Source: Dehalococcoidia bacterium
GTDB taxonomy: Bacteria; Chloroflexota; Dehalococcoidia; GIF9; UBA5629
NCBI GenBank assembly: GCA_011170325.1
Contig: DUEX01000001.1
Span: forward strand, 373-64,372
Reading direction: 5' to 3'
Length of the DNA stretch: 64,000 bases
This document shows positions 3,665 through 37,134 of this stretch, piece after piece. Position 1 is the stretch's first letter. The number at the start of each line of letters is the position of its first letter. Under the pieces are notes generated by a model. That model saw only the letters and a list, made by a program, of their open reading frames with translations. It had not been told where the DNA came from and made no database searches. The position numbers and the translations under genes were made by a program.

Positions 3665-3889
3665 GTCCAGGGAGAGGGAGCACGTCGTCCAAATTTTTGA
3701 AGGCTTAGTGGTGTGGCAAAAGGCTCATCTGCCGCTCGTTCGGGACAGGCCTCGCAAAGACGACTCTCTATCATTGTAAACTCCATGAGTGAGATTCTTC
3801 CTTACGCTCAGAATGACGAGTAGGCTTGCTAAATAACCTGTGCTATCTCTACTTGTTAGCTATGTCCTGCCACGCTATAATTAAGCACG

Positions 3890-18860: not shown

Positions 18861-19658
18861 ATGGAATATTCTACAATCATTCTGGACAAAGCTGAAGGAA
18901 TTGCTACTCTCACCCTCAATCGCCCAGACAAACTTAATGCTCTTGATGAGACAATGGCCGGTGAATTGCTTGATGCATTTACCCGGGTCGAGCAGGACAA
19001 TGATATAAGGGTATTGATTATTACCGGCAACGGTCGTGCCTTTTGTGCCGGAGCTGACATCAAGGATATTTTCCTGAAAAGGATAGAGGAAAGGAAAATC
19101 GGCAAAGAAGGCTATGATATTGCTGGCTGGCTAACTAAAGCTTGTTCGCAGCTTAGAAAAATGACAAGACCAACGATTGCCTCGATAAATGGTCATGCTG
19201 TCGGTGCCGGCATAACACTTCCCCTGGAGTGCGATATAAGAATTGCTTCGGAAGAGGCAAGAATATCATTGCCTTTTCCTCAAGTTGGTGTGACCCCGGA
19301 GTGCGGTTCTACTTACTCCCTGCCACGTCTAGTAGGAATAGCCAAGGCTTGCGAATTAGTCTTTGCTGGCAAGACTATCGGGGCTAAAGAAGCCAAAGAG
19401 ATAGGGCTGGTTAATCAGGTTGTGCCAGCGGCTGAATTAAAGACAGCCACTTATGAATTGGCGAAAACTATAGCTGAAGGAGCGCCTTTAGCTATTCAAA
19501 TGGCTAAGAAGGGGCTTTACCAAGGACTGAATGCAAACCTTGAAGATCAATTACAGTATGAGGAGCAGTCGCTAAACGCCACTCTTGACACTGAAGACCA
19601 TGAAGAGGGGCTAAGAGCCTTCTTAGAGAAAAGGCAACCGGTTTTCAAGGGCAAATAA
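18861..19658 (+). CDS. Enoyl-CoA hydratase (crotonase family)
   Basis: Internal Met after the RBS AAAGGAGCCCAAATG. Protein begins MEYSTIILDKAEGIATLTLNRPDKLNALDE, includes GHAVGAGITLPLECDIRIA and ends EGLRAFLEKRQPVFKG. Confidence 0.8.
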   Translation: MEYSTIILDKAEGIATLTLNRPDKLNALDETMAGELLDAFTRVEQDNDIRVLIITGNGRAFCAGADIKDIFLKRIEERKIGKEGYDIAGWLTKACSQLRKMTRPTIASINGHAVGAGITLPLECDIRIASEEARISLPFPQVGVTPECGSTYSLPRLVGIAKACELVFAGKTIGAKEAKEIGLVNQVVPAAELKTATYELAKTIAEGAPLAIQMAKKGLYQGLNANLEDQLQYEEQSLNATLDTEDHEEGLRAFLEKRQPVFKGK

Positions 19659-19662
19659 TATT

Positions 19663-19704
19663 GCGGGGCTAACTCAGTGGTAGAGTTCCTGCCTTCCAAG
19701 CAGG
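19663..19704 (+). pseudogene. Truncated tRNA-Gly(TCC) 5' fragment (acceptor 5' strand, D arm and anticodon arm only)
   Basis: 42 nt GCGGGGCTAACTCAGTGGTAGAGTTCCTGCCTTCCAAGCAGG matches 40 of the first 42 nt of the intact tRNA-Gly at 34148. No T-arm or acceptor 3' strand follows. Confidence 0.6.
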
Positions 19705-20085
19705 CATTTCCTCACCAAAGCTAGCGGCCACTGATTCAGCTTCAAAATTGGTGCGCCGAGGCAGGCACCAGCCATTTCTCACCCTCGGTTTGCTTTTATT
19801 CATTCTATCTGTTGATGCACTCACTTCTGTCCTCCTGGCTGTGTTTTTGTCCCCTTGAGTCGTTTCCATACCCTCTACTAGTCATTCCAGCTCTTCTACA
19901 ACGGATAAGGTAGCATTAGCTAAAACCGATGTTAATGATCAGCGGTCCGTATGCCAAGTATTATTATGTAAACCAACATTTTTCTTGTTGAAGACCATTG
20001 CAGCCAATGGAATCCAAGGAGCCCATGTCTTAAGCGGCAGCCTAGCCCCTTCTTGAACAACTATCCCAAAATGGAAGCGAGACCT

Positions 20086-20122
20086 GGCCAGCCAAAAGCT
20101 AGCTGCTAGCTTTTGGCTGGCC
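20086..20122. repeat. Perfect 18-bp-stem inverted repeat (GGCCAGCCAAAAGCTAGC t GCTAGCTTTTGGCTGGCC)
   Basis: Read directly from the sequence. Lies about 140 nt upstream of the IS110 transposase start. Confidence 0.6.
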
Positions 20123-20258
20123 GTCGGGGGCAAAACTTCAACCGCCTTTATATCTCTGAGGAAACAATACAGGTATCATGAAAGGGTAATGCACCTCCTG
20201 AGTCTATGGTGTAAAGTCAGGTTTGGAAGAACCCGAATATACCATAAGGAGGTGCTAA

Positions 20259-21334
20259 GTGGAGTATATTGGTTTGGACTGTCACAAGCAATATGACCAC
20301 GCGACAATGATTGACACAGAGACGGGAGAAGTAAAGGCAAAAAGACTAGCACATACCAAGGAGGAATTTAGAGAGTTCATAGGCAAGAGAGCAAACACTA
20401 GGATGGTGTTAGAGTTATGTTGGAATTGGTCCAAGACGTATGAGCTGGCGAAAGACCCTGTGGAGGAAGTGATTCTTGCTCATCCGCTTAAGGTAAAAGC
20501 TATTGTCTCAGCCAAGGTAAAGACTGATGCTATTGATTCTCGAACACTGGCTCAGCTACTAATGGATGATCTTATTCCCCAAGCCCATCTAAGGAAAGCA
20601 GACAACCGGGTAAAACAAAGGGTGATTAGACATAGGGCTTTCATAGTAGCAATGAGGACTCGAATAAAGAACCGAATACATGACCTTGTAAATAATCAGC
20701 CACTGCCACCGGAGATCGTTGAAGCAAAGCCAACGAACCTGTTCCTAAAGAAGAGAAAGAGGGGTACGGAATGGCTTACCTCATTGAAATGGGACAGGGA
20801 AGAGGACAGGAGAATAGTCCAATCAGATTTGAGACTTATAGAGCGTCTTAACCAGGAAATATCAACTAGCAATGAGATGATTGAGGAGATACACGGGAAA
20901 GACAGGGGATGCCCAGCTTCTTTTCACCATCCCCGGAATAAGGATACCCCTGGCTGTTCTCATTAGCACTGAAATAGATGGCATTAGCCGCTTTAGTTCT
21001 CCATCTAAGTTGTGTTCTTATGCTGGTCTTGTACCATCCACCCATTCGTCGGGAGGAAAGACATATCATGGGAAGATCACCTTGGAAAGGGACCGGTGGT
21101 TAAGGTGGGCTTTGGTGGAAGCTGTTGTACCCGCGTCCTACGCTTATATGGAAATAAGAAAAACTGTTGGATGCCCTTAGGAAAATCAAAAATGCAAATG
21201 TAGCTAAGACAATAATGGCTAGTTAGCTGCTTAAAGTGGTGTACCATGTGCTAAAAGAAGGTCGCCCTTATGTGCCAACTGATCCGGCTGAAGTAAGACC
21301 GGGCCGCCCTTCAAAAGCCTTAGCGAGCTCATAG
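20259..21334 (+). mobile_element. IS110-family transposase, disrupted by a +1 frameshift near 20890 and an in-frame TAG near 21222
   Basis: N-terminal DEDD-type domain (YIGLDCHKQYDHATMID). C-terminal domain motifs FTIPGI...ISRFSSPSKLCSYAGLVPSTHSSGGK lie in a second frame. Family-typical C-terminus AKTIMAS*LLKVVYHVLKEGRPY lies beyond a stop. Confidence 0.7.
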
Positions 21335-21716
21335 TAGTGAGTTGCGCTCCTAATACAGGTTAAGGGGTTCCGAATCGGACGTTACAATGTGCATCAAGAT
21401 TGATGGTACGGATAGGAAGCTGCTGTGACTCTAGCTGCACAAAAGAGGCAATTGTCACTCTTATGCTGAGCAGTATCCTAGTGTATAGTTTGGCTAGGGC
21501 TACCGTACTATTGACATTGTATGAAGAAATGTCCTATTGTTCATAACAAAAAAGGGGGTGCTCTTCTTCAGATAGGGTGTTTAAGATTGAGAACATTGCT
21601 GGGGGGGTATAGTTGGTGGTGCACATAGTCGAAAATTGTCGCTGGTGATGAAGTAACAAGCATAGGTAGAAGATAGACTACTACTGCATTAAATCTAATT
21701 TTGTGAGGAGTTACTT

Positions 21717-22952
21717 ATGAAGAAGTATGAGCCATTTATTATGGAAGAAGATCGACTTATGCTACGGACAGTCCGTGACTTCGTTGAGAAGGAGATCATG
21801 CCTGTCCGAAAGCAGCTAGATGATCCGCAACGGGGTCATCATATCTATACGGAGCTAATGGAAGGGTTAGTGCATATAGGGCTACAGAAGCGTGCTTTGC
21901 CAAGAGAGATCGGTGGCCTGGGACAAAGTTCTGCAGTCAGCCAAACCACCACTAGCGAGGAGCTAGCAAGAGGTGACCCTCTTTTTGGTATTATGCCTGG
22001 CATGGCCGCTTGGATTTTTGGCCCAGCGATAGTGAGCCGAAATATGACTGTTCTGGAAAAGTTTGCCGCCCAATTTTGTGAGGACAAACTACATACTGCT
22101 GCTTTATCTCTGACTGAGCCAAGCGGTGGATGTAATATCGCTAGCGCTGAGGAGAGGGGTCGCACAATCCAGACTATCGCCCGCTCGGAGGGTGATGAGT
22201 GGGTCATAAATGGGCACAAACGTTGGACAAGCAACGGAGGGATTGCCGAGATCTACTTGGTGCTTTGCCAGACAGACCATGCTCTGGGAGAGGATGGGAT
22301 AGCCCTGATTTATGTTCCTGCTGGCACTCCTGGGATGTCTTTTGGTAAACCGGAAAACCTGATGGGTTTCAAGGCTGATATAAATCTCGAGGTCTTCTAT
22401 GATGATGTCAGGGTGCCGAAGGCATGGCGAGCCTCAGATGAACCTGGCCGAGATGGCCGGAATGTGCGTCGTATCTCATGTTTTGCTCGGCTTATTTCTG
22501 CTGCATCTCTAACAGGGGTGGCCCAAGGTGTCTTCGATTACGTTGTAGAATATACCGCAAATAGGTTTTTCGGGGGTAAACAAGTTAGGCAGCACACAAT
22601 GCAAGCCGGCATTTTGGCTGATATGGCTATTGATCTGCTGAGTGCTCGGGCTTTTTACTTACAGATTGCATCATGGTTTGACAATCGTGCTGTCTTTGGT
22701 AGCCCTACTGGGGACTTCTTGCTAGGAATGGCAAGCGCCATAAGAATATATGCTGCGGATGCGACTATCAGAAGTTGCAACAAGGCTATGGAGCTCATGG
22801 GAGCCTATGGCTACTCAGAGGATTACCCCATCGCCAAGTATCTGCGGGATTCGAAGATCCTTCAGTTATGGGAAGGAGGTGTTCATCAAACTCGGATAGA
22901 TGTAGCACGCGCATTTTATTCCGTACATGGCCCAGAGCTTGTTATTCCGTAG
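21717..22952 (+). CDS. Acyl-CoA dehydrogenase family protein
   Basis: 411-aa ACAD fold with the C-terminal YPIAKYLRDSKILQLWEGG, where a Glu sits at the MCAD-type base position. Confidence 0.8.
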   Translation: MKKYEPFIMEEDRLMLRTVRDFVEKEIMPVRKQLDDPQRGHHIYTELMEGLVHIGLQKRALPREIGGLGQSSAVSQTTTSEELARGDPLFGIMPGMAAWIFGPAIVSRNMTVLEKFAAQFCEDKLHTAALSLTEPSGGCNIASAEERGRTIQTIARSEGDEWVINGHKRWTSNGGIAEIYLVLCQTDHALGEDGIALIYVPAGTPGMSFGKPENLMGFKADINLEVFYDDVRVPKAWRASDEPGRDGRNVRRISCFARLISAASLTGVAQGVFDYVVEYTANRFFGGKQVRQHTMQAGILADMAIDLLSARAFYLQIASWFDNRAVFGSPTGDFLLGMASAIRIYAADATIRSCNKAMELMGAYGYSEDYPIAKYLRDSKILQLWEGGVHQTRIDVARAFYSVHGPELVIP

Positions 22953-23002
22953 CTTTGGTCATTGCTAGAGATACAATAACAGAATCATAAGGAGCTGAGA
23001 AG

Positions 23003-24163
23003 ATGGAGTTTCAATTGAACGAAGAGCAAGTGATGCTTAAGAGAATGGTGCATGAGGTAGCCGAGAAGGAGTTCCGCCCGAAAGTAACAGAATGGGAGAC
23101 TAAAGCTGAATTCATGCCCCGTGAGTACTTCAAGAAGCTAAGCTCATTAGGGCTTTTAGGATTGTCTGTCCCTGTAGAATACGGAGGACAGGGGCGAACT
23201 GCTTTCGAAGTTATTCTAGCTATTGAAGAGCTAGCACGGGTATCAATTCTATGTGCTTTACCTGTTTTTGAATCTGGTGTGGGACCTGTCAGGGTGATCG
23301 AGCAATTTGGAACCGAAGACCAAAAACGAAAATATATACCTCCCGTATGCCAAGGCGAATCCTGGTGTGCCGTTGGTATGACTGAACCTGAGGCTGGTTC
23401 AGCGCTAACTGATCTCAGCACAAGAGCTGTCCTAAATGGCAATTACTATGTTGTGAACGGCACGAAATGCTTTATTACCGGAGGAGGCGAGGCTGACATT
23501 TACGTGACATATGTGAGACTCAGTGAGCAGAAAGGTGCTAAAGGCATTGGTGGGCTGATCATTGAAAAAGGGGCGGCAGGTTTTTCTTTCGGCAAGCAGG
23601 AGCAGTTTATGGGCTGGCGAGGCGTGCCAAGCTGTGACCTAATCTTCGAAGATTGCCGTGTGCCCAAAGAGAACCTTGTAGTCAGGGAAGGAGATTTCAG
23701 AAGGCTGATGACTGCGTTTGACCTTGAGCGGTGTGGTAATGCAACTATGTGTTTGGGGATAGCCCAAGGAGCCCTTGAACAGGCAATAGACTATTCGCAA
23801 CAAAGGAAGCAGTGGGGCAAAGACATATGTGAGTTTCAAGCAGTCCAGTTCATGTTAGCTGACGCACTTATAAAGGTCGAAGCAGCCCGGCTTTTAATCT
23901 ATAGGGCAACAGTCAATGCTGCCACGGGGTTGCCCTCTCCGCTTGAGGCGAACCTTGCTAAGTGCTTTGCTAATCAAATGGTGAGAGATGTCACCGCGCT
24001 TGTTTTGCAGATACACGGCGGCTACGGTTATTCGAAGGACTATCCTGTAGAGCGCATGTTACGTGATGGCTGGGGTTGGGGGATCGCTGGTGGTAGCATT
24101 GAGATTCAGAAAACCACCATAGCCTCTCAGCTTCTAAATCGCAGATTCGATCAGAGGAAGTAG
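23003..24163 (+). CDS. Acyl-CoA dehydrogenase
   Basis: 386 aa with N-terminal helical, middle beta and C-terminal helical ACAD domains (GMTEPEAGS, CFITGGG, YPVERMLRD). Confidence 0.85.
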   Translation: MEFQLNEEQVMLKRMVHEVAEKEFRPKVTEWETKAEFMPREYFKKLSSLGLLGLSVPVEYGGQGRTAFEVILAIEELARVSILCALPVFESGVGPVRVIEQFGTEDQKRKYIPPVCQGESWCAVGMTEPEAGSALTDLSTRAVLNGNYYVVNGTKCFITGGGEADIYVTYVRLSEQKGAKGIGGLIIEKGAAGFSFGKQEQFMGWRGVPSCDLIFEDCRVPKENLVVREGDFRRLMTAFDLERCGNATMCLGIAQGALEQAIDYSQQRKQWGKDICEFQAVQFMLADALIKVEAARLLIYRATVNAATGLPSPLEANLAKCFANQMVRDVTALVLQIHGGYGYSKDYPVERMLRDGWGWGIAGGSIEIQKTTIASQLLNRRFDQRK

Positions 24164-24775
24164 AGGGCTCGGGAATAAGGTCAGCACCATTCTATTTATG
24201 AAACCTATTTACCAAAAGCTTGCAATTGCGATATAGCTTTCCGCAATTGTACCGTAGACCATTTGGCATGCAATCCATCGTTTCGTTCAATCCGACGACA
24301 TCGAACTTTCCATCTTTTTGTTGCTTTACTTTAAGCCAATTTGTGTCTATATTCCCAACTTCCCAAAGGATATGCGGTATAGTAAATAATCCCAAGAGTT
24401 ACCCAGTAGATTACCAAGCAAAACCATCGAAGCACAAGATGGATGGCTTCTGCCTTTTCCAAACCCTATGTCTCCTGCAATTCCTGAATCGCTTCGGGAT
24501 CAGGATGAGCGTTAGATTCAGCCCAATGCTGCGCATAGATCAGGCTAGGGCCTCGTCTTCCAGTCAGCCACCAACGTCTCCTAATAGTAGCTAACTAATT
24601 TCCTCCTGACTAATCCCATCTATCAATGCTAATTTCGCGTGGAAGTAGGAACAATAACAGCAACCATCTACTGCACTTACAGCCAGCATAAGCCTCTCCT
24701 GGAAAGCTGGTGATAACAACCTCCCTTATTCTTCATTTCCTTCAGTCGTTCCCAACAGTATACTGTTTACGCAGC

Positions 24776-25933
24776 TTAGGCAAAAGCAGAAATTCCCAAC
24801 AAATCGCGGCCCACGATTAACTGCTGCATTTGAGTAGTGCCATCGGGAACAACAGCTACCCGTGCATCCCTAAAATAACGCTCTAATTGGTACTCCTCAG
24901 AAAGTCCGTAAGCCCCTAAAACCTCCATAGCCTCAGAAGTAACTCGCACAGCAACTCGTGGTGCGAACGATTTGGCGAGTGCCACGTTTCTAGCCCTTCC
25001 CTCTTCCTGATCTAGAGACTGAAAGGCTCTGTAGACTAAAAAGCGAGCTGCTTCGACATCAGCCCACATATCGGCCAGCATACCTTGAATCAGCTGAAAC
25101 TGACCAATTACTTTGCCAAACTGACGCCTTTGTTTCGCATAATCGATAGCACTGTCCAAAGCAGCCTGAGCAGCACCCAGGCTATTCATCGAAATACAGC
25201 ATCGAGACAACTCTACTCCAGCCATAAAACGTCTGAAGCCGCTTCCCGGCTCTCCAATGATGTTCTTTCTGTGTACCCAACAGTCCTCAAACGTAAGTTC
25301 GGCATTATCCCAACAGCGCATCCCGATTTTTGGTAGCAGACGCGTAGCAAAAGGAGAGACTTCCTTGTCGATAATGATAAGTGACATACCTCGACTGCCT
25401 TTGCTAGGATCCATAAGTGCTAAAACGATAGCCATTTCAGCTATAAATGCACATGAAATCCAAGTCTTCGTCCCATTGATTACGTAATAATCATTATCTA
25501 GTGCAGCTATGGTTTTACACTCGGCCAAATTTGAGCCAGCTTCAGGCTCAGTCCCGGCCTCGCACCATATTTTGTCACCTGCAAACAAAGCAGCTAAATG
25601 CCATCTTTGGTCTTCGGCACCTGGTGCAGCCAGATAATGAGCACCAGCAATCTGTATTTGTACGATTCCGGCTAAGGAGCCCCATGCTCTGGCTAACTCT
25701 TCGTAAAGTACAGCATACGAAGTCCAATCTAGAGCCATACCACCACACTCCTTAGGAAAGGGCCCGTTTAGATACCCTAAAGGAATGATCGTTTTCAGCA
25801 ATTCATGAGCCGCTTGATTAGGTAGATGGGTCATTTTTTCGTATGTGTTTACAACAGGGATTATTTCTCGTTCCATGAAAGAACGAGCATTCTGCTTGAC
25901 GAGCTTTTGTTCTTCATTTAACTCAAAATCCAT
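24776..25933 (-). CDS. Acyl-CoA dehydrogenase (IVD/LCAD-type catalytic Glu on helix G)
   Basis: 385-aa ACAD fold. NAELTFEDC carries a Glu at the IVD-type base position. The C-terminal motif reads VPDGT. Confidence 0.85.
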   Translation of the reverse strand: MDFELNEEQKLVKQNARSFMEREIIPVVNTYEKMTHLPNQAAHELLKTIIPLGYLNGPFPKECGGMALDWTSYAVLYEELARAWGSLAGIVQIQIAGAHYLAAPGAEDQRWHLAALFAGDKIWCEAGTEPEAGSNLAECKTIAALDNDYYVINGTKTWISCAFIAEMAIVLALMDPSKGSRGMSLIIIDKEVSPFATRLLPKIGMRCWDNAELTFEDCWVHRKNIIGEPGSGFRRFMAGVELSRCCISMNSLGAAQAALDSAIDYAKQRRQFGKVIGQFQLIQGMLADMWADVEAARFLVYRAFQSLDQEEGRARNVALAKSFAPRVAVRVTSEAMEVLGAYGLSEEYQLERYFRDARVAVVPDGTTQMQQLIVGRDLLGISAFA

Positions 25934-26647
25934 TTAAATTTACCCCCAATTTTCATTAGGATGTCGGCTTCAACAATAGAACAATCTATTATACAAAGGA
26001 TATTAGCTTAATGCTATAAGTGTATGTTGTCAGCGAAAATGGGACAATTTGGCCCTCAGAGTTAATGGACACCTCAGAGACCAATGTCCTACTTCCTGGC
26101 GGTTCTATTATGATCCCTTCTTGCTTGTAATGTCCCGTTTTCCGCCGCCTTTACTCAACGAGGCTATTCAATTTTGCCTCGAATTTGAGCTTACATTTGT
26201 TTCGACCTTCCTTGAAAACTTTCATCGCCAATTTAGTCCTCACTTCCAGCTTCATTATTTTGCGAAAACTGTGGGGACTTCAAAGCCGATTCCGACTTTC
26301 TCGATATCTGAAGCATCTGGTCTGCACTTAAGATATTCTACGGCAAAAAGCAACAGATTAGGCTAAACGCTTAATCGATTAAGTTTTGCGGCGGTTTTGT
26401 TGGCTAAGTTACTGCCCCAAAACAGATACAATTCTGGGTAAAAACTGGGGTGTCAACCTGCTAATCAGCTAGCTGCTTGCTTGCTGGCTAAGCAGCTAAG
26501 CAACTGCTTTAAGCAATGGAGCAATCTGATGGTGATACTTGTAACAGGAGCAACAGGATGTCTTGATTCAGGAGTAGTGCCGAGATCAAGTTGAAAGGCA
26601 GTTTATTCTAGCGTAGAATCAAGGCCATGACAGGTTGGAGGGGAGTT

Positions 26648-26767
26648 ATGGACAGAAAGGAAAGGTATGAGCAATTACAGGAGAAGATAATAGAACTTAC
26701 GAGGCAGCCTAAGAGAAAGATAGAGCTGAAAGCGGTAATGGACATAGGAGGAATGATTAAGGCCTAG
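26648..26767 (+). CDS. Hypothetical 39-aa charged, coiled-coil-like peptide
   Basis: ATG preceded by GGAGGGGAG. Encodes MDRKERYEQLQEKIIELTRQPKRKIELKAVMDIGGMIKA. Lies 26 nt upstream of the crotonase gene. Weak evidence only. Confidence 0.2.
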   Translation: MDRKERYEQLQEKIIELTRQPKRKIELKAVMDIGGMIKA

Positions 26768-26792
26768 GAAAAGAGCATAGAGGAGTTGAGCG

Positions 26793-27551
26793 ATGAAATA
26801 TGAAAATCTAATGTATGAAAAAGACGAGGGTATTGCCAAAATAACTATAAACCGTCCTAAGGTGATGAATGCTCTGAGCCCAGCGGTTCTCTCAGAGATC
26901 AAAGCAGCTTTGCAGGAGGCAAGCAAAGATGACGATGTGCGAGTAGTGGTGCTTACTGGAGCAGGCCGTGCCTATTCTGCGGGAGCGGACTTGCTATCAT
27001 TAGAAGACCGTAAGCTGGAGGGAGGAGCCATAGGACCTATACTAGATGATCCAGGTAGAGATGTTATCGATACTATACAGACTATACCCAAGGTTGTGAT
27101 AGCTATGATTAACGGATATTGCCTCACCGGTGCATTGGAAATATCCCTGGCTTGTGATCTCATTATAGCCTCGGAAGAGGCCAAGTTTGGAGATACTCAT
27201 ACCCGCTGGGGGCTTCGGCCCAGCTGGGGAATGAGCCAACGTTTGCCGCGCACTCTCGGACTACTGAAAGCTAAAGAACTATCCTTTACTGCAGAGACCA
27301 TTACAGCACAGGAAGCAGAGCGCATCGGCTTGGTAAATATGACAGTCCCTGCAGAGAAATTGGAGGGGACTGTGCAAGAGCTGGCGAGGAAGATAATGGC
27401 CAATAGTCTCGAAACGATTGCTGCTTATAAATATCTTTACAATCGTGGTATGAGAGATAGCCTGGAAAAGGGCTTAGAACTGGAGTCTAAGAGCAAGTTT
27501 GTGATTACAGATACCGACGAGAGACTAGAAAAGTTCAGGAAGAAGCACTGA
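26793..27551 (+). CDS. Enoyl-CoA hydratase (crotonase family)
   Basis: 252 aa beginning MKYENLMYEKDEGIAKITINRPKVMNAL. Crotonase fold with GYCLTGALEISLACDLIIA. Confidence 0.85.
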   Translation: MKYENLMYEKDEGIAKITINRPKVMNALSPAVLSEIKAALQEASKDDDVRVVVLTGAGRAYSAGADLLSLEDRKLEGGAIGPILDDPGRDVIDTIQTIPKVVIAMINGYCLTGALEISLACDLIIASEEAKFGDTHTRWGLRPSWGMSQRLPRTLGLLKAKELSFTAETITAQEAERIGLVNMTVPAEKLEGTVQELARKIMANSLETIAAYKYLYNRGMRDSLEKGLELESKSKFVITDTDERLEKFRKKH

Positions 27552-27873
27552 GTAAGACTCGTAAAAATGGAGGAGCCTGCGCTAATACCCTTATCTCAGC
27601 AGTAGGGCAAACCTGCTAGAGGCCGCTCAAGGAAATTGGGGACACGCTTTGATTATACCCATAAGCCAAGGCAAGATGGATGAAACAAAGGTAAGTGTCA
27701 GGAGACTGCGGTCAAACGATAGCATTTCTGCTGAGGGCTAACAAGGAGTTCAGTGTTATTGTTTGTGAGAGCTAGGGGAGAAAATCTCAAAATCTCCAAA
27801 CTACAACTGAGATGATGTTGTGTTCCGTTATGGTTGCTGCCTCTATCGCCAAAACTATAGCTAACAAGAGTGC

Positions 27874-28041
27874 TTACCTTACTGCCAAGCCTAGATAATA
27901 TGGCCAGATAACTAAAGCAAGTATAATTTTCCACCAAATCAGATTGGCATAAGCAATAGTGAATAACCAACCGATGAACCAAATAATGCCCACAAGGCCC
28001 GATGCAGCCTGATTCGCCCTATGTTTGCTTCCCTGCGTCAT
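27874..28041 (-). CDS. Hypothetical small membrane protein (about 55 aa, 2 TM)
   Basis: Reverse-strand ORF encoding MTQGSKHRANQAASGLVGIIWFIGWLFTIAYANLIWWKIILALVIWPYYLGLAVR. Below the track cutoff. No homology recognised. Confidence 0.25.
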   Translation of the reverse strand: MTQGSKHRANQAASGLVGIIWFIGWLFTIAYANLIWWKIILALVIWPYYLGLAVR

Positions 28042-28367
28042 GTCACTTTTCCTCCGTAACGCCTTACAAATTAATGTTCTTTTGGATTGTTAACGTGTTT
28101 CCTGCAATATTTCAATGCAAATTTTTCTGGATAACAATTTGGGGGCTCGTATGCTCACCTTTGAGGACAGCATGAAGCATTACAAGGCAGTGTCCCAAGA
28201 GCTTCTTGGCTCTATTATGAATTCTGTGGAAATGAAGCCGGTTCTCGAGGTGTGCCACCTGCCCATCCGATTGAACAGAAATCCAAATTGTTAGATTAGC
28301 AGATTGTTAAATCTGGCCTCGAATACTGTTACACTACCTACAAAATGATTTATGAAACAATATAACG

Positions 28368-28565
28368 ATGGGTGATACAGGTTTCATAATAGGCATGTTT
28401 ATTGGTATGTCAGGTGGCATTTCTATTGGCATCCCGATGGGGAGGCAACAGAAACCTTGGTCTGAATTAACTCCCAGAGAGAAACGGTTACGCATAGGCT
28501 TAGCAGCTCTAGGCGCCATTCTGGTAGTAGCTGGTATAGTCGTGTTTCTCCTAAGAGCTACTTAG
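28368..28565 (+). CDS. Hypothetical small membrane protein with glycine-zipper N-terminus and C-terminal TM
   Basis: 65 aa: MGDTGFIIGMFIGMSGGISIGIPMG...AALGAILVVAGIVVFLL. Confidence 0.3.
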   Translation: MGDTGFIIGMFIGMSGGISIGIPMGRQQKPWSELTPREKRLRIGLAALGAILVVAGIVVFLLRAT

Positions 28566-28640
28566 TTTTGGTTCTTCAGCCACCATTCCATTGCGCAATG
28601 CGATGGATTGTTGGATTTGTGATGCAAATTCCATTCTGGT

Positions 28641-29390
28641 TCAGGCACTCTCGAATCGTTTCCTCAACTGCTCCTCAGTCAACAGCCCACCTGTAAGACT
28701 CCTAGCATCCTGAGCTGCTACTAATGCCGCATACTTGCCCCACATCCATGGGGATTGCCAGCCTGACATGTCAGCCTGTGGGTTTACGAACCTGGTCCCC
28801 TCCGTAACAGTATAGCTAGGACAAAGGGCATTCACAGCAATATTGTATTCCTCAAGTTCCTTAGCCAAACCAAGCGTAAACCTCTCAATTGCTGCCTTGG
28901 AACAGCCATAGGCTGTATTGCCTTCAATCAGTGTAGTTCCTAGTATTGACGAAAGGTTGATAATATTGCCCCGTTTTTGATCTAGCATGTAAGGAAGGAC
29001 AGCTTTAGTACAGAGGAAAGTGCCTCTTAGATTAACAGCCAATATGAGATCCCAGCGTTTTATAGAAAGTTCAAGTACGGAACTGCGAGCTGATATCCCT
29101 GCATTGTTGACCAAGATGTCCACCCTTTTGAACTCACTAATAGTATGCCTAACCATCCTCTCTACCTCCTCTTCCTTCGTGACGTCTGTCTTTAGAGCAA
29201 GGCAACACCGGCCTAGATTTTGAATTTCGCTTGCGGTCTCATGGATGGTCCCGGGCAAGTCTTTATGGGCTGTCTCAGTTCGTGCTGCAACTACTATGTC
29301 GGCTCCTTCTTTAGCCAAGGCGATAGCTATGGCTTTACCTATACCTCGGCTACTGCCAGTGACTATGGCTACTTTCCTCGACAATGTCAT
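28641..29390 (-). CDS. Short-chain dehydrogenase/reductase (SDR) family oxidoreductase
   Basis: TGSSRGIGKAIA cofactor motif, NNAG motif, and catalytic YGCSKAA (YxxxK). Confidence 0.85.
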   Translation of the reverse strand: MTLSRKVAIVTGSSRGIGKAIAIALAKEGADIVVAARTETAHKDLPGTIHETASEIQNLGRCCLALKTDVTKEEEVERMVRHTISEFKRVDILVNNAGISARSSVLELSIKRWDLILAVNLRGTFLCTKAVLPYMLDQKRGNIINLSSILGTTLIEGNTAYGCSKAAIERFTLGLAKELEEYNIAVNALCPSYTVTEGTRFVNPQADMSGWQSPWMWGKYAALVAAQDARSLTGGLLTEEQLRKRFESA

Positions 29391-29766
29391 GGTTCTCACA
29401 CCTCCTCCGTTACTTGCTTTATATTACAGCAAAACTAAACCCAAAAGCTACACATCTGGCTGTGCTTGCGGATTGGTGTTACGGTGGCAAATAACTCCTA
29501 AACGCAAGATGGCTGATGCAAGATTTACTCACCTAACTGGCACATAAACAATCTGGTTAATTGTTTGCCTCAATCTAATGTTTTCACAGAAGTGAGTAAC
29601 CTTCATATCTCGGCTGACTTTTAGCCCTGTTTGATTCTAAGTCTCAGCCCATATATAATTTGTTGTTGACTAGCAAAAATCATATGCTCTCAAAGGCAGT
29701 TTCCAGGGCTGTCCAAAGGAGAATTAGCTATCCCTAGTAAATCAATTTTCAGGAGGTATTTGACTA

Positions 29767-30627
29767 ATGAAAAGCGATGGTTTTGATCAATTCAAGGGTT
29801 CGTCTGATTATGTTACTTCTGAACCCTTAAGGAATGCGGTTAATGTAGCTATAGCCTTGGGAAGACCGTTATTAATTAGGGGAGAGCCGGGAACAGGGAA
29901 GACCCTGCTTGCTCACAGCATCTCCAGTGGGTTGGGCAAAAAGCTGATTGTATGGAATATAAAATCAACCACCAAGGCTCAAGAGGGATTATATGTTTAT
30001 GACACTGTGCAAAGGCTGAACGACAGTCGCTTCGGTGATAGAGATGTTTCTGACATCAAGCAATACATCAAGCTGGGTAAATTAGGGCAAGCCTTCGCTT
30101 CTCTCGAGCAGGTGGTGCTTCTCATCGACGAGGTAGATAAGGCTGACATTGAGTTTCCCAATGACCTCCTTAATGAATTGGATGAAATGAGCTTTCACAT
30201 TCCAGAGACCAATGAGACCATCACAGCTATTCACCGACCGATATCAGTCATCACCAGCAATGCTGAGAAAGAGCTCCCCGATGCGTTCTTGCGGCGTTGT
30301 ATATTCCACTATATTGAGTTCCCCGACCCTGAGCTGATGGAGGAAATCGTCCAGGTACATTTCCCTAATATTAAGAATAGCCTTCTTCGCGAAGCCCTGA
30401 AGACCTTTTACTCACTGAGGGAGATCGACGAGTTCAGGAAGAAACCCTCGACTAGTGAACTAATAGACTGGATTCGGGCTCTTATTGTTGGAGGCATACC
30501 CCACGAAAACGTTTCTAAGGAGATTCCCTTTGTTGGCACTCTGCTGAAGAAAGAGACGGATTACGATTACTTTGTAAATAGTCACATGACTAGGATTGGC
30601 AGTACTTTCATCACTCGGCGGCAGTAG
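29767..30627 (+). CDS. MoxR/CoxD-like AAA+ ATPase
   Basis: 286 aa with Walker A GEPGTGKT, Walker B LLIDEVDKA, and the sensor region VITSN. Confidence 0.75.
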   Translation: MKSDGFDQFKGSSDYVTSEPLRNAVNVAIALGRPLLIRGEPGTGKTLLAHSISSGLGKKLIVWNIKSTTKAQEGLYVYDTVQRLNDSRFGDRDVSDIKQYIKLGKLGQAFASLEQVVLLIDEVDKADIEFPNDLLNELDEMSFHIPETNETITAIHRPISVITSNAEKELPDAFLRRCIFHYIEFPDPELMEEIVQVHFPNIKNSLLREALKTFYSLREIDEFRKKPSTSELIDWIRALIVGGIPHENVSKEIPFVGTLLKKETDYDYFVNSHMTRIGSTFITRRQ

Positions 30628-30629
30628 AT

Positions 30630-31799
30630 ATGTTCACTGACTTTTTCTATACCCTCAGGAAAAGGAAGGTGCCAGTTTCAACTACTGAGTGGATGACCCT
30701 TATGGAGGCTCTTACTAAGGGTTGCATCACCAACCTAGATGAATTCTACTTTTTGGCAAGAGCGATACTGGTTAAGAGTGAAGCCTACTATGACCATTAT
30801 GATGTTGCCTTCAAGGAATATTTTAAGGGGGTGGAAACCCCAGCCGAGATTTCAGAACAGATATTGGAGTGGATTAGAGACCCCATTAACCGGATGATTC
30901 TTACTGAAAAGGAGCAAATCCTATTCGATAGCATGGATTTCGACGAACTGCTTGAGGAGTTGGAAAAGAGACTCAAAGAGCAGACTGAGCAGCATGATAG
31001 GGGTGGTTACTGGATCGGCCGGGGGGGCACCTCTCCCTTTGGTCATTCTGGATACTATCCCGCTGGCATTAGAATTGGTGGTGAATCAAGGGGCAGGCAT
31101 GCCATACAAATTGCTCAGGAGAGGAGATTCCGAAACTATCGCAACGATTTGACCCTCGATGTCCGCCAGATCAAGATAGCCCTAAAAAGCTTGCGAAGGC
31201 TAAGCCGAATTGGCTCTGAGGATGAGCTAGACTTAAAGAAAACTATCGACGCTATTGCTAAGAATGCGGGTGAGATTGAGCTAATGTGGCAGCGAAGCCG
31301 AAAGAATGCAGTTAAAGTGCTCCTGTTAATGGATGTTGGCGGGTCTATGGAACCCTTTGCTTTGCTGTGCAATCAACTATTCTCGGCAGCTCACTCTAGC
31401 ACTCATTTCAAAGATTTGCGCTACTATTATTTTCATAATTGCATCTATGATGACCTTTATCAGGACATTGAGAGACAAGAGGCAGTAAGCACCGACCGTC
31501 TCCTAAGCACCATAGAGTCTGACTATAAGCTGATATTGGTGGGAGATGCCAGGATGGCTCCCTCAGAGCTAATGGAGAGGTACGGGGCAATCAATTACTA
31601 TGAGCGCAATGAAACACCGGGGATAGTCCGGCTCAATCAGATTGCCGAACATTTTACTCACTATGTTTGGCTGAATCCCTATGGCCCACGCTTCTGGATT
31701 CACCCCACTGTTCAAATGATTGGGAAGATCTTTCCTATGTTTCCCCTTACCCTCAATGGTCTGGAGCAGGCCGTGAAAAGCTTGATCGTGAAGAAATAA
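30630..31799 (+). CDS. CoxE-like VWA domain protein
   Basis: 389 aa with a MIDAS-like LLLMDVGGSM motif in the C-terminal half. Separated from the upstream AAA+ gene by 2 nt. Confidence 0.75.
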   Translation: MFTDFFYTLRKRKVPVSTTEWMTLMEALTKGCITNLDEFYFLARAILVKSEAYYDHYDVAFKEYFKGVETPAEISEQILEWIRDPINRMILTEKEQILFDSMDFDELLEELEKRLKEQTEQHDRGGYWIGRGGTSPFGHSGYYPAGIRIGGESRGRHAIQIAQERRFRNYRNDLTLDVRQIKIALKSLRRLSRIGSEDELDLKKTIDAIAKNAGEIELMWQRSRKNAVKVLLLMDVGGSMEPFALLCNQLFSAAHSSTHFKDLRYYYFHNCIYDDLYQDIERQEAVSTDRLLSTIESDYKLILVGDARMAPSELMERYGAINYYERNETPGIVRLNQIAEHFTHYVWLNPYGPRFWIHPTVQMIGKIFPMFPLTLNGLEQAVKSLIVKK

Positions 31800-32046
31800 C
31801 CCTGCTTACTTCTTGAAGTGGCTCATACGTTGTTTGGGGTTCGTGTGTCGACTATTCTTGCCTACTAAAAATTAGTAGGCCCCAATTTGCACAAAATGAC
31901 GGGATGTTCAGTATACTCAGCCCTCTTGACAATATGGTCAGCTGGTTAAAATATTGAGTAGCTGCCCATTCACTATTGTCGACGCCGCAATGTGCCCGCA
32001 CCGAAGATTGTAGTCCGAAGGTTTGCCATTTGTCCAGGTTTCTAGG

Positions 32047-32718
32047 TCAGCTTGTCGGCCCGGTGCTCTTCTCCGGTTGATCTCCGCCAAACCCGTCAGT
32101 AACCCCCTTGGCTGACACCTTGCCCGCAGACATCACCATCTTCAGAGCGTCATCAATCGAAATATCGGTAGGGGTAACGTCTTCCTCAGCCACTATCTGT
32201 AGGAACCCCGAGGTGGGATTTGGTGCGGTAGGGATGAACACATTAAGCATTTGTTTGCCGGATTGACCCGCGTACTCGTTGGTGACAAAGGCAACCGTCT
32301 TCATGCCTTCCTTGGGAAATTCTATCATCACCACCCGCATAAAACTGCCCTTATCCTGTGATGAGAAGCTCTCCACGATCTGTTTGATGCTGTAGTATAG
32401 CTGACAAACCAGTGGTATTTTTGACAAAATAGATTCCCCGTAATGGATCAATTTACGGCCAGCGACGCTACCGACAATAACTCCGACTATAAGAATCAAC
32501 AGGATTGTAACGACGAGACCAACTCCAGGCACATTGTGCCCAAATATAGCTCTGATTACCGGCTGCAAGATGCCGTCGACCTTGTCGAAAACCCAGACCA
32601 GTATCAATATGGTGACACCGAGTGGTATAATGATCTTCAAACCGTCAAGGAACCGCCTTCTCAATGTCTTGGGTAGCCATTGACGGCCCGCAGACAATTT
32701 CTTTCCTGTCGCTTGCAT
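32047..32718 (-). CDS. DUF502 family membrane protein
   Basis: N-terminal RRRFLDGLKIIIPLGVTILILVWVF and a second TM helix, a typical DUF502 arrangement. Start placed at an internal Met of the 260-aa track ORF. Confidence 0.6.
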   Translation of the reverse strand: MQATGKKLSAGRQWLPKTLRRRFLDGLKIIIPLGVTILILVWVFDKVDGILQPVIRAIFGHNVPGVGLVVTILLILIVGVIVGSVAGRKLIHYGESILSKIPLVCQLYYSIKQIVESFSSQDKGSFMRVVMIEFPKEGMKTVAFVTNEYAGQSGKQMLNVFIPTAPNPTSGFLQIVAEEDVTPTDISIDDALKMVMSAGKVSAKGVTDGFGGDQPEKSTGPTS

Positions 32719-33264
32719 CCAGTCTCTGGCTTGGGTCTGTGTCAGACTGAGATATTTCCGTGAGGAATCAACTGCCTTCCGGGCGGCGGTTTTGCTATAA
32801 AAGACTCCCGAGTCCTTGAAAGATTTCATCGCTCATATTTTACCACTTCTTACCTGCCTCGAGAAATGGCCAAACTAAAAAGCATCTGCATCATCTCCCT
32901 GTCCAAAGTTGTAAATAAATTCTGCACGCCCTTGGGTTCACCTCCACGCTTGGTCCTAAACCAACGAAATAGCGTTTCGTGAGACGCTCTCCCGAAATCG
33001 AGCGTAGTCTACTTGGGGATGGTTCTGCCCTAAGATGAGTTAACCATCAATGTCGGGTGTTTCCGAAGGTAGGAGCAAGAGTGGTTGAGTCGGTTAGAAA
33101 GCATCTCGTGGAACGTGTAGTATTACAGAACTGCTTCTAGACTATGTGCGCACGGTGCTGCGGCATAGTAGCTGTGTTAAACGTTGCTTGCTGTTATTAT
33201 TGGCGGGTATATCTCTGTCTGATATAATATAAATGACCTAAGATTATACGCAAGGAGGGTACAG

Positions 33265-33828
33265 GTGAAAGACTCACGTTCTTTAGTCAATAGGATGCTC
33301 CGGGCTTCTAAACTCGAGGTTGGCCTCTACGAGGAAGTCGAATCTGACACAACGGCCAACTCGCAAGTTCTGATGGCAGTAGTCATAGTCAGCTTGGCCA
33401 CGGCGATCGGCACTGGCATCGCCGGGCTAGCTACGAAAGGTGCCCTGGGATTCTTGTAGGGGCTATTAGCTGGTCTTGCCGGCTCTCTAGTCGGCTGGCT
33501 GGCTTGGTCGTACCTCACATACATCCTGGGCACTACGGTGCTGAAGGGACCACATACTTCAGCAACTTGGGGTGAGCTGCTCAGAACCATCGGCTTCGCA
33601 CATTCTCCAGGCGTGCTGCGCATTTTTTCGTTTATTCCTTTTGTCGGCGGCATTATCTCCTTTGGTGCTTCTATCTGGTTTCTGATTGCCGGTGTAATTG
33701 GGGTAAGGCAGGCCCTTGATGTCTCCACCGGACGTGCTCTTGTGGTCTGTGTTGTGGGCTGGCTTGTCTATTTGGTAATCATCATGCTAATCAGCCTTCT
33801 ACTGGTGGGTGTCGGGGGGCTTTTCTAG
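33265..33828 (+). pseudogene. Yip1-family membrane protein interrupted by an in-frame TAG (33457..33459)
   Basis: Track ORFs 33265..33459 and 33538..33828 share one frame. The translation is continuous across the TAG (…GALGFL*GLLAGLAGSLVGW…) and Yip1-like throughout. Confidence 0.5.
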
Positions 33829-34147
33829 GAAACGTAACGGTATCTATCTTTACGTGGTAATAGGAGTCAGAATAACCGGAAAACTCACCCGCCAAAGCAT
33901 TAACAATTGGGCGAAAAGTGTAGCTCTTAGTCAGGTAGTGCTTGACATGGGCAGCCCAGCAGACTCAAGGAAGCGCTCGAGATAGATCACGCTGCTGGTA
34001 ACCATATCTATGGTCTTCTGGCTTTTGCCACCCCCGCATAGATTCGGTAGCCTGCGACCAGGGCTAAGAGTCCGAGCACCTTTTTTGATGAAGCAGGAGC
34101 CCCTTTTGACGAAGCTGAGATTTTGGGCTAGAATAGATATGATTTTT

Positions 34148-34222
34148 GCGGGAGTAACTCAGTGGTAGAGTTCCTGCCTTCCAAGCAGGCTGTCGCGGGT
34201 TCGAGCCCCGTCTCCCGCTCCA
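34148..34222 (+). tRNA. tRNA-Gly (anticodon TCC)
   Basis: Cloverleaf reconstructed by hand: acceptor stem GCGGGAG/CTCCCGC, D arm ACTC-AGTGGTA-GAGT, anticodon stem CCTGC/GCAGG with loop CTTCCAA, T arm GCGGG-TTCGAGC-CCCGT, and an encoded CCA. Confidence 0.85.
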
Positions 34223-34234
34223 CCAGATAGAGCC

Positions 34235-35668
34235 TCAGCTTTGTTGATGCCACTGTTGATATTGAATAAATTTGTTGATGGCACTGGCAGCTCGGCTTAT
34301 GGAGGGGTAAACGGGGAATCCAGCTTCACGTAGCCTCACATGCACCTCTGAAGCGAGCCGCTTAGCTTCATCTGTGGCATAGGAGTGCAAAACAACAGCC
34401 ATGGGCTTACTTAACGTGTTGTTCAAGTTGATGAGAGACTCAATAGAGGGCTTAATCACATCCTTTCCGTCTATCACACCCCAGGTGTCAAACGCCACAT
34501 GTATGATTAACAAATCAATCTGGTCACAATCAGCAATTATCCTGCTAGTGTTCAGAAGCATCTCTGGCCTCGCAAGTGTATCTACAGGATTTCCAAAAAT
34601 GTGCCCGGCCTCAGTGCCGTAAATCTCCTTCAGTTTCCGCCTGATCTGCGCCGGCAACACCGGTAGGGTTAACCCGGCATTTAAGCAGTCATCGGCAGAC
34701 TGGACACTGGCCCCACCCCCCGATCCAATTATCGCCGTGTTTCTTCCTTTCGGAGGAGACATGCGCAAAAAAAGCAAGGCTATATCAACTATTTCCTCCA
34801 CGCTGTGCACCTGAATGGCACCAGCTTGCTTCAAGAAACTCTCCCAGATTATGTTTGAGCCGGCTATAGCGCTGGTATGTGAAGCAGCAGCCCTTGTTCC
34901 ACTTTCCGTAGTCCCGGCCTTAAAGATTATCACTGGTTTTACTTTAGCTGCTCTCCTTAGCACTGTGGCAAAACGAGAGCCACCTTTCAAGCCTTCGATA
35001 TAGAGAGCGATTATCTGAGTCTCCGGGTCACAAGTAAAATACTCCAAAAAATCGGTCTCGTTGAGGTCAGAAGCATTCCCATAGCTTATGACCTTGCTGA
35101 AGTAAATGCCCCTTGTAGTTGCCTCCCTAATGCAATAGATGCTGTTTCCGCCACTCTGAGCAATAAGACCGACCGGGCCATTTTGTTTGGGAAAGCCACT
35201 TTGCTCAGGAAAGTTCACGGCGAACGATAAGCCCGTTTTAGGGCAGTATAAGCCCATACAATTTGGCCCAATGATCCGGATACCACTCTGGCGAGCTACC
35301 CTGAGGACCTCCGATTCCAGTTGTTGACCTTCCTCATCCTCTATTTCACTGAAGCCAGAGGTGAAAAAATGAATAGCTCTCACTCCCTTAGCAGCACAGT
35401 CCGCCACCAGTTGCGGCGTATATGGAGCCGGGATGGCTGATATAACATAATCAACTCTATCTGGAATATCCCTAACACTTGGATATATTTTCGAGCCAGA
35501 TACCTCGCCACCCTTAGGATTAACGGGATAAATCTTCCCTTCGAACCCAGTGTCGATCAAGCTTTGCATGAACCCTTGACCGGGGCTAAATTTAGTCGAA
35601 TCGCCTGAAACACCAGCAATAGCTATCGACCGGGGATGGAAAAGATAATCGAGGCCTAACTCATCCAT
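34235..35668 (-). CDS. Acyl-CoA synthetase (ADP-forming) alpha-subunit-like protein (CoA-binding + succinyl-CoA-synthetase-like flavodoxin domains)
   Basis: 477 aa with an N-terminal CoA-binding Rossmann region (IAIAGVS...KIYPVNPKG), a CoA-ligase domain, and the region containing the phospho-His loop. Confidence 0.65.
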   Translation of the reverse strand: MDELGLDYLFHPRSIAIAGVSGDSTKFSPGQGFMQSLIDTGFEGKIYPVNPKGGEVSGSKIYPSVRDIPDRVDYVISAIPAPYTPQLVADCAAKGVRAIHFFTSGFSEIEDEEGQQLESEVLRVARQSGIRIIGPNCMGLYCPKTGLSFAVNFPEQSGFPKQNGPVGLIAQSGGNSIYCIREATTRGIYFSKVISYGNASDLNETDFLEYFTCDPETQIIALYIEGLKGGSRFATVLRRAAKVKPVIIFKAGTTESGTRAAASHTSAIAGSNIIWESFLKQAGAIQVHSVEEIVDIALLFLRMSPPKGRNTAIIGSGGGASVQSADDCLNAGLTLPVLPAQIRRKLKEIYGTEAGHIFGNPVDTLARPEMLLNTSRIIADCDQIDLLIIHVAFDTWGVIDGKDVIKPSIESLINLNNTLSKPMAVVLHSYATDEAKRLASEVHVRLREAGFPVYPSISRAASAINKFIQYQQWHQQS

Positions 35669-36174
35669 TGTGATTCCTGCTTTGTATTCTCAATTGTCCC
35701 GCCTGATTCTCCTGCCGGTAATGTCTCTGTTCTCCTACAAGAAGTCTTAGACACAATTGCCAGCAACAGCTAACCATTCTATACCGTCACCAGTTCCCTT
35801 TCAATCTTCAAGTTATGACCTCACAGAATCAGCCAACAGCCAGAGTATCGTTCTCAAGGCAACAGAATAGACAGTCCTGGACGTATGCTTATCACTAACA
35901 TATTTGCTTGGTGCGTATGTGCCAAGTAAAGATAGAGTGACTGGTCTCCCATTCCACCCTATCTGGGTCAGCTTTGGATTGCTTGGGGTAAGTTTTTGCC
36001 TGTTGACAAAATAGGAAAAAGCTTCTATCATATAATTGCCATCGACCATAAGGCGGTGAGTTTTTAGTAAAATAAAAATATCCGCTTGGATCAGCACTGA
36101 CCGAGACGGAAAATAGTGGCAATCTATCTTAGGCCTTTTCAGCAGTGCTGAGAAGGTCTAATTTTTGGGCAACT

Positions 36175-37134
36175 ATGTATAACGCTATAACTGACATTCC
36201 GGGAATCAAAGTAGGACATTACAGTGATAGGGAAGCAATCACTGGCTGCACCGTGATTCTGTGCGAGACGGGGGCAGTAGCTGGAGTTGATGTCAGGGGC
36301 TCAGCACCAGGAACCAGAGAAACCGACCTGCTCCGACCAATGAACTTAGTGGAAAAGGTCCAGGCTATCCTTCTCAGCGGCGGCAGCGCCTTTGGACTGG
36401 ATGCCGCCAGTGGGGTAATGCGTTACCTCGAGGAGCGAGGCTTCGGTCACGAAACCTCAGTAGCTAAGGTGCCTATCGTTCCTGCAGCCATACTCTTCGA
36501 TTTAAGGATAGGTAGCTCCAAAATCAGACCCGGGGCCGAAGAAGGCTATAAGGCTTGCCTAGCTGCGAGTGACAGAGAGGTAGCCGAAGGTTGTGTTGGC
36601 GTTGGCACCGGAGCTACAGTAGGCAAGGCTCTGGGAATAGACAGCGCAACTAAAAGCGGTCTGGGCACAGCTAGCCAGGAAATAGGCGATGGTATCATTG
36701 TTGCTGCCCTGGTTGTGGTTAATGCCTTCGGAGATGTTATTGACCCCGGAACGGGAAGAATTTTAGCTGGTCCTCGTCATCACCAGGATAAGGAGTTCCT
36801 CAGTACCGCTGAACTATTAAAACAAGGTTATAACAGGCGAAATTCCCTGCCTGATAATACCACTCTGGGTGTAGTAGCCACCAACGCTGGCTTGAGTAAG
36901 GAGCAGGTGAACAAACTGGCACAGATGGCGCAAGACGGCGTAGCTCGGGCTATCAACCCCAGCCACACTATGTACGATGGCGATACCATGTTTGCTCTCT
37001 CCTTAGGTGAAAAGATGAGCGATGTCACCATTCTCGGTTCAGTGGCTGCTGAGATAGTAGCTACTGTTATAGTCAGGGCAATTCTTCAGGCCGAGACAGT
37101 TGCTGGTGTACCAGCAGTTAAAGATATGGTTTAG
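36175..37134 (+). CDS. DmpA/BapA-type (peptidase S58) aminopeptidase
   Basis: ITDIPGIKVGHYSD and VDVRGSAPGTRETDLL are N-terminal S58 family hallmarks, with an Ntn-hydrolase-like GGSAFGLDAA. Start taken at an internal Met. Confidence 0.65.
   Translation: MYNAITDIPGIKVGHYSDREAITGCTVILCETGAVAGVDVRGSAPGTRETDLLRPMNLVEKVQAILLSGGSAFGLDAASGVMRYLEERGFGHETSVAKVPIVPAAILFDLRIGSSKIRPGAEEGYKACLAASDREVAEGCVGVGTGATVGKALGIDSATKSGLGTASQEIGDGIIVAALVVVNAFGDVIDPGTGRILAGPRHHQDKEFLSTAELLKQGYNRRNSLPDNTTLGVVATNAGLSKEQVNKLAQMAQDGVARAINPSHTMYDGDTMFALSLGEKMSDVTILGSVAAEIVATVIVRAILQAETVAGVPAVKDMV

Follow-up and report, generated by a model that had tools for sequence, protein, structure and literature searches.

A partial copy of a tRNA-Gly(TCC) gene lies directly behind a crotonase gene in a Dehalococcoidia genome, with an intact copy 14.5 kb downstream and a decayed insertion sequence (IS) between them. 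Is this pair the trace of an integrated element, the scar of a rearrangement, or an old resident of the locus? A partial and an intact tRNA kilobases apart are the standard signature of a genomic island, and an IS nearby invites a rearrangement story. The locus was studied in the window, i.e., the whole stretch of 64,000 nucleotides that was analysed (contig DUEX01000001.1), and in fetched loci of relatives and metagenomes (L numbers). It is probable that an old tRNA-Gly(TCC) pseudogene resides after the crotonase gene, that its 5' part has been renewed by gene conversion, that the IS110 element inserted independently of it, and that a ~16-kb difference from relatives beside it is no att-bounded island.

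The fragment at 19663–19705 (+) shares 41 of its 43 bases with positions 1–43 of the functional tRNA-Gly(TCC) at 34148–34222 (+), and comprises the acceptor 5' strand, the D arm, the anticodon arm and the first variable-loop base. The first-pass annotation had reported this match of a 5' part to the gene 14.5 kb away, and the match is real. Both mismatches fall at tRNA positions 6–7, where the fragment has GC instead of AG. The remaining stretch is identical over 36/36 positions (19670–19705 vs. 34155–34190), and 100 shuffles gave no pair of this kind; with two T upstream of the tRNA, the alignment reaches 45 nt with two mismatches (19661–19705 vs. 34146–34190). Both copies are on the same strand, in direct orientation. 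The enoyl-CoA hydratase (crotonase) gene occupies 18861–19658 (+; Pfam ECH_1, E=2e-67), and the fragment starts 4 nt past its stop codon at 19656–19658.

The intact gene is the sole tRNA-Gly call made by ARAGORN in the window, and it reaches 67.3 bits with the Rfam tRNA model. The fragment is not called by ARAGORN, and the Rfam model covers only 19672–19704 (model positions 10–42) at 23 bits vs. a threshold of 29, so that the complete cloverleaf and the detector scores of a functional tRNA are lacking. The tRNA 3' half (31 nt) has no further copy within the window at up to 3 mismatches, the far end of the IS included.

The junction is present in six independently assembled metagenome contigs that are 99.4–100% identical. 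Five of them span it entirely (the overlap of the sixth, L004, is 100 nt and stops inside the fragment), and the fragment is therefore not an assembly artefact. The exact crotonase protein is found on 4 metagenome contigs. The tRNA-Gly sequence is almost invariant across the group: the tRNA-Gly(TCC) of the window and that of the distant relative L022 differ by one base within the tRNA body and are identical in the 5' half, so that the high identity of fragment and intact gene cannot by itself date a duplication.

Decayed tRNA-Gly copies after the crotonase gene of relatives

In seven related lineages, whose crotonases are 73–75% identical to that of the window, a decayed tRNA-Gly-like sequence begins 4–5 nt after the crotonase stop codon. 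The loci with a remnant (L060, L061–64, L145, L147, L148, and L153) represent every lineage with a crotonase in this identity range, and in every lineage that carries a remnant it follows the stop codon of this gene. The remnant is full length in four lineages, L145, L153, L148, and, more weakly, L147. ARAGORN made no tRNA call on the remnants in L145, L153, L147, L148, L061, and L060.

The two halves of the functional tRNA-Gly (5', 43 nt; 3', 32 nt) were fitted separately to each locus, and the fit of the 3' half was compared with shuffled sequences. Both halves are recognisable in L145 (39/43 and 26/32, p<0.0005) and in L148 (33/43 and 25/32, p<0.0005). The values are 37/43 and 22/32 in L147 (p=0.09) and 31/43 and 20/32 in L061 (p=0.0075). 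In L060 the 5' half matches at 28/43 and the 3' half is not significant (p=0.32); in the window the 5' half matches at 41–42/43 and the 3' half is again not significant (p=0.54). The L153 remnant was judged full length by eye, and it has an altered anticodon loop in common with L145. In both (L145 1308–1382, L153 1247–1321), CTTCCAA has become CTCGCAA (anticodon CGC), and the acceptor stem is interrupted by a C at position 3. As both changes are shared and derived, loss of function of this copy predates the split of L145 and L153.

The remnants thus have the features of a tRNA pseudogene, an orthologous position in relatives and some full-length copies with both halves significant (L145, L148). 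Structure has been lost without compensating changes: across nine aligned sequences 75% of the cloverleaf cells are paired vs. 72% in shuffles, and the anticodon and T stems contain many unpaired cells. A complete gene once occupied the site, and all lineages that still have the copy have it in decayed form. The first-pass annotation took the fragment for a rearrangement scar; that reading fails on an outcome which the annotation itself had given as refuting it, the complete, if decayed, tRNA-Gly found at the same site in L145, L153, L148, and, more weakly, L147.

Relatives available in databases are either of the same species (≥99% protein identity) or at most 75% identical. Members of the 90% identity cluster are all at least 99% identical and thus the same species, a metagenome scan with the crotonase returned only further members of the distant groups and same-strain contigs, and the best crotonase matches in species-representative genomes are 64–70% identical and have no other window gene in common. 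As no genome falls between 75 and 99% identity, the timing of events at the site cannot be bracketed.

The remnant is gone from the more distant L018, L019, and L021. In these loci the crotonase gene lies among tRNA genes, with tRNA-Met upstream and tRNA-Arg(TCT) ~640 nt downstream. In L022, tRNA-Pro is upstream of the crotonase gene, and a functional tRNA-Gly(TCC) and tRNA-Met are ~950 nt downstream. Behind the crotonase gene, L018–L021 and L145 have a conserved promoter and hairpin (TTGACT...TATAAAATTAGCAGTCGGAAAATGAGACTGCTAA).

Uneven decay of the pseudogene and its possible causes

The similarity of the window copy to the functional tRNA breaks off between positions 43 and 44. This break is not a fresh truncation, since beyond position 43 the window retains homology to L061: window 19717–19749 aligns at the same offset with L061 2154–2186 at 26/33 positions (79%), a value exceeded by 0 of 500 shuffles. 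A derived AAAGCTAGCGG replaces the T loop in both, and the crotonase tree groups the window with L061 as its sister. The interval 19706–19749 (+), homologous to L061 and without significant fit to the tRNA 3' half, would therefore hold the strongly decayed 3' part of the pseudogene and the sequence immediately downstream. By this alignment the 3' part appears to be present and ruined, with damage that predates the split of the window and L061, although its tie to a tRNA runs via L061, itself of modest resemblance. The T arm and 3' acceptor strand had been described as absent in the first-pass annotation; this stands as far as a recognisable 3' half is concerned, and gives way to a probably ruined 3' part within 19706–19749.

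The 5' part has a different affinity. In the window it is 41/43 identical to the paralogue 14.5 kb away, whereas the orthologue in L061 retains only 31/43 positions of the tRNA. Among all copies compared, the window copy has both the best preserved 5' 43 nt and the most degraded 3' part. One mark of a gene conversion tract is present: in the 5' part the paralogue is closer than the orthologue, and from 19717 on the flank is homologous to L061 and unlike the paralogue.

Judged from the mosaic pattern alone, gene conversion would be the simplest mechanism. The pseudogene has probably been located 4–5 nt past the crotonase stop codon since a time before the window and several other lineages of Dehalococcoidia diverged. 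Its 5' part has probably been overwritten, repeatedly or recently, through non-reciprocal homologous recombination with the functional tRNA-Gly, which has the same orientation and lies 14.5 kb downstream. An early indel in the T loop would have removed the homology on the 3' side, so that the 3' part escaped conversion and drifted. The gene at 34148–34222 is the likely donor that keeps the 5' part fresh; the donor 5' half is identical in L022, and hence there is no lineage-specific marker by which the window's own gene could be proven as the donor. Published work was searched for gene conversion affecting tRNA pseudogenes, with nothing relevant found for bacteria.

Bacterial genomes tend to lose unused DNA. 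That a pseudogene stays in place over such divergent lineages is out of the ordinary for them, and might be a hint that it still has some function. Selection might keep the 5' part, with the D and anticodon arms forming a structured 3' end of the crotonase mRNA that could be a site of processing, a stabilising element, or a weak terminator originating in an ancestral co-transcribed tRNA. This explanation is unlikely. It would account for the constant place of the remnant, 4–5 nt past the stop codon in seven lineages whose downstream DNA is heavily rearranged, and L061 has a perfect 17-bp inverted repeat with the anticodon-arm region (fold z-score -5.2), with a weaker complement at the same offset in the window (19761–19768). 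However, the stems are broken without compensation in most lineages (the 75 vs. 72% pairing given above), the window sequence folds no better than shuffled sequence (z=-0.9), and no terminator-like site was detected after the crotonase gene. Structure alone would not hold the loop bases identical to the tRNA over 36/36 positions, and L018, L019, and L021 no longer have the remnant. The related idea of an exapted tRNA-like 3' element, which would be cleaved or would stabilise the crotonase transcript, hence be retained in several Dehalococcoidia lineages, and in the window genome keep perfect D and anticodon arms, is quite doubtful.

The inverted repeat of L061 pairs 2118–2134 with 2196–2212, the second arm lying ~60 nt downstream of the anticodon-arm region of the pseudo-tRNA. 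Its counterpart in the window is weaker, GAGGCAGG to CCTGCCTT, and two pair differences look compensatory, in a comparison of two sequences only. Selection for a hairpin could explain the repeat, as could template switching that made a palindrome perfect. A conserved RNA structure was considered and rejected, because the strong hairpin is confined to L061, the window z-score is -0.9, and the cloverleaf counts indicate decay. Rfam matches in L061 and L060 were discarded as spurious microRNA or sRNA hits.

The 5' part may also have received fewer substitutions in the window lineage by chance, with neither conversion nor selection. The stretch is only 43 nt long and decay rates vary among lineages, with 5' halves from 28 to 39/43, yet the 3' part directly adjoining is unrecognisable and the sister copy in L061 has 12 changes in its 5' half. 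Just downstream, the window and L061 are ~20–30% different, a divergence at which 36 consecutive unchanged bases would occur about once per several hundred trials (an estimate, not a formal test). Chance is accordingly given a low probability.

The ~16-kb block and the IS110 element

The DNA between the crotonase gene and the next conserved gene differs among relatives. In L147 and L148, the crotonase gene is followed by the pseudo-tRNA, ~230 nt, and then a Peptidase_S58 gene and the gene next to it, both 79–81% identical to window 36145–37134 and 37212–37730. With crotonase, pseudo-tRNA and S58 adjacent in these loci, ~16 kb (~19750–36000) are extra in the window. The right-hand synteny anchor at 36001–37134 (+) consists of a promoter, a pan-motif leader and the S58 gene; L147 1321–1559 matches window 36001–36237 at 77%, and homology with L147 and L148 resumes at 36001, i.e., 1.8 kb beyond the intact tRNA. 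The first-pass annotation had the 14.5 kb bounded by the two tRNA-Gly copies and proposed a synteny check of 19.7–34.2 kb in relatives. The check bears out that DNA between crotonase and S58 is variable, the ~16 kb being absent in L147 and L148; as a boundary the intact tRNA does not hold, the right edge lying 1.8 kb past it.

The pan motif RNA (RF01749) is at 36037–36113 (+; 46.3 bits vs. a threshold of 36.2), between a TTGACA/TATCAT-type promoter and the S58 gene; promoter and leader are 77% conserved in L147 and are present in L148 too. Another regulatory RNA of the window, a T-box leader (RF00230, 103 bits) at 52127–52395 (+), presumably regulates the gene downstream.

The block contains a spacer, the IS, three acyl-CoA dehydrogenase genes, a second crotonase gene, an SDR gene, an AAA/VWA pair, a DUF502 gene, the functional tRNA-Gly, and a minus-strand gene for an NDP-forming acyl-CoA synthetase-like protein (34235–35668; Pfam Succ_CoA_lig, CoA_binding). 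The latter gene is absent between crotonase and S58 in L147 and L148, and its homologues elsewhere (68–70% identical) have no adjoining tRNA-Gly and no neighbours in common with the window. Pfam searches of 20 ORFs (15482–37134) gave metabolic, AAA/VWA and DUF502 proteins and, apart from the IS110 pseudogene, no integrase, excisionase or other recombinase. The cargo serves fatty-acid and CoA metabolism, like the flanks. A foreign composition of the block, which was to be checked against the flanks, was rejected: GC content is uniform with the flanks, and the tetranucleotide distance to the rest of the window is only slightly shifted (121 vs. 89–117 for control blocks).

The ~16 kb may be either an insertion in the window or a deletion in the L147/L148 lineage. 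Elsewhere the genes after the pseudo-tRNA are a Zn-ribbon gene in L145, a 1037-aa activase-like gene in L061, and another gene in L060, which brings the downstream neighbours among the relatives examined to at least four different ones. To judge from these neighbours, rearrangements have evidently recurred in the stretch that follows the pseudo-tRNA, and the ~16-kb difference would be a lineage-specific rearrangement beside the tRNA locus, with no att-bounded island. A short repeat, GTCATTCTGAGCG.AGCGAAGAATC, is intergenic in several Chloroflexota contigs (L145 1445–1493; L149, L153). The same type occurs once in the window, at 3792–3839 (-), at 80% over 50 nt, and may be REP- or MITE-like.

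An old tRNA-targeted integration, with fragment and intact tRNA as the direct repeats of an element of 14.5 kb that has since lost its integrase, was one of the two origins suggested in the first-pass annotation, and it is very improbable. The direct repeat of 43–45 nt has the geometry expected if the element carried the tRNA 5' part, the intervening DNA is missing in L147 and L148, and by tetranucleotide profile the block departs slightly more from the rest of the window than the controls do. Against this, relatives hold a full-length tRNA-like sequence at the site, neither empty nor half; even the block-less L147 and L148 carry the decayed full-length copy, and the sequence past position 43 is common to L061, which is without the block. 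Furthermore, the DNA missing in L147/L148 overshoots the intact tRNA, mobility genes are lacking, and cargo and GC content resemble the flanks. Integrative elements reportedly duplicate the 3' part of a tRNA as a rule, whereas the remnant is a 5' part. Among the marks of att repeats, a partial copy in direct orientation is thus present, and an integrase, an uninterrupted tRNA in block-less genomes, and block ends exactly at the repeats were not found.

The second suggested origin involved the IS. The decayed IS110-family element extends over 20162–21502 (+) and includes a transposase pseudogene (20259 to ~21335) with two frameshifts and one stop, in which Pfam DEDD_Tnp_IS110 and Transposase_20 are found in different reading frames. 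Intact homologues, 70–88% identical, are common in Chloroflexota metagenomes, and 13 loci carrying two different intact relatives were fetched. DNA homology of the window to intact copies is confined to 20162–21422. The left end at ~20162–20170, ACAGGTA(A/T)CATGAA...TAATGCACCTCC, is common to the window, L005, and L013; the right end is at ~21502 in the window (...TTCATAGGAGGCT), L005 and L007 diverging ~165 nt past the transposase stop. The left end is thus ~460 nt downstream of the tRNA fragment, and does not abut it as the first-pass annotation had stated. The left flanks of three independent insertions (window, L005, L013) have only an ACAA-type motif in common, which is unrelated to tRNA. 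The 13 loci with intact relatives contain no tRNA genes, no IS is present at the remnant site in relatives carrying the remnant, and the window has no second copy of the IS.

A splitting or duplication of an ancestral tRNA locus, by the IS or by recombination among its copies, is hardly credible: a decayed IS110-family element does lie in the same intergenic region, and L005 and L007 show that DNA beside such copies can be rearranged, but the element has its own conserved ends ~460 nt off, the motif in its flank is not tRNA-derived, and neither a tRNA near the intact relatives, nor an IS beside the remnants of relatives, nor a second IS copy or a tRNA 3' half elsewhere in the window was found. 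Targeting of the tRNA by the IS was rejected on the same mapped ends and the 13 tRNA-free loci. The IS110 insertion is independent of the tRNA remnant; the frameshifted element inserted later, on its own.

The spacer between pseudogene and IS (19750–20161) has no similarity to the fetched loci except same-strain contigs, and its two short minus-strand ORFs have no Pfam match. It contains a near-perfect palindrome of 37 nt at 20086–20122 (CCAGCCAAAAGCTAGC...GCTAGCTTTTGGCTGG), ~45 nt upstream of the IS left end, with no T-run after it; in L013 a hairpin is also found upstream of the IS copy. In IS110 relatives the left end measures ~90 nt, and GCACCTCC can pair with the ribosome-binding site GGAGGTGC. 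The transposase gene is followed by ~165 nt of non-coding DNA with conserved ends and a variable middle, where a guide (bridge or seek) RNA would be expected. L005 and L007 have the same IS and left flank and different right flanks, so that the DNA adjoining the IS has been rearranged.

Relation to known systems

Like other tRNA pseudogenes of bacteria, the window remnant has a once full-length tRNA homology, is missed by detectors, has uncompensated stem breaks and a functional copy elsewhere, and occupies an orthologous position in relatives. It differs in the strikingly uneven decay, with a near-perfect 5' stretch of 43 nt beside an unrecognisable 3' part, and in its persistence across lineages with proteins only ~73% identical.

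Gene conversion and concerted evolution are known between dispersed bacterial repeats, for example rRNA operons and tufA/tufB. The window resembles these in a perfectly identical block with an abrupt end at the point where homology ceases, and in the similarity to the paralogue exceeding that to the orthologue. In contrast to them, the recipient is a dead gene, the tract measures 36–43 nt, and the donor is invariant across the clade. IS110-family elements are DEDD transposases guided by non-coding RNA to specific targets. The window element agrees with the family in its two Pfam domains, its conserved ends, the ~165 nt of non-coding DNA after the transposase, and an intergenic position near a palindrome; it has nothing to do with the tRNA remnant, from which it lies 460 nt away, its flanks have no tRNA sequence in common, and it is a pseudogene itself.

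Partial tRNA copies are left at the ends of integrated elements (attL/attR) in archaea and bacteria (PMC9897764). The window is alike in having a partial copy, in direct orientation, kilobases from the intact gene, and an island finder would pair the two. Unlike those copies, that of the window is a 5' part instead of the usual 3' part, there is no integrase, the flank is ancestral, the variable DNA overshoots the intact tRNA, and relatives carry a full-length copy at the site.

As a feature the fragment is real and probably ordinary. It is probably what can still be recognised of an old tRNA-Gly pseudogene, the 5' part of which would have been homogenised with that of the functional gene. An island call for 19.7–34.2 kb would be a false positive, because the "half" tRNA would be an old resident pseudogene, and not every partial tRNA copy marks an island. 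The mosaic decay may be a compact case, in an uncultured Dehalococcoidia genome, of gene conversion that acts on a dead gene over a very short tract.
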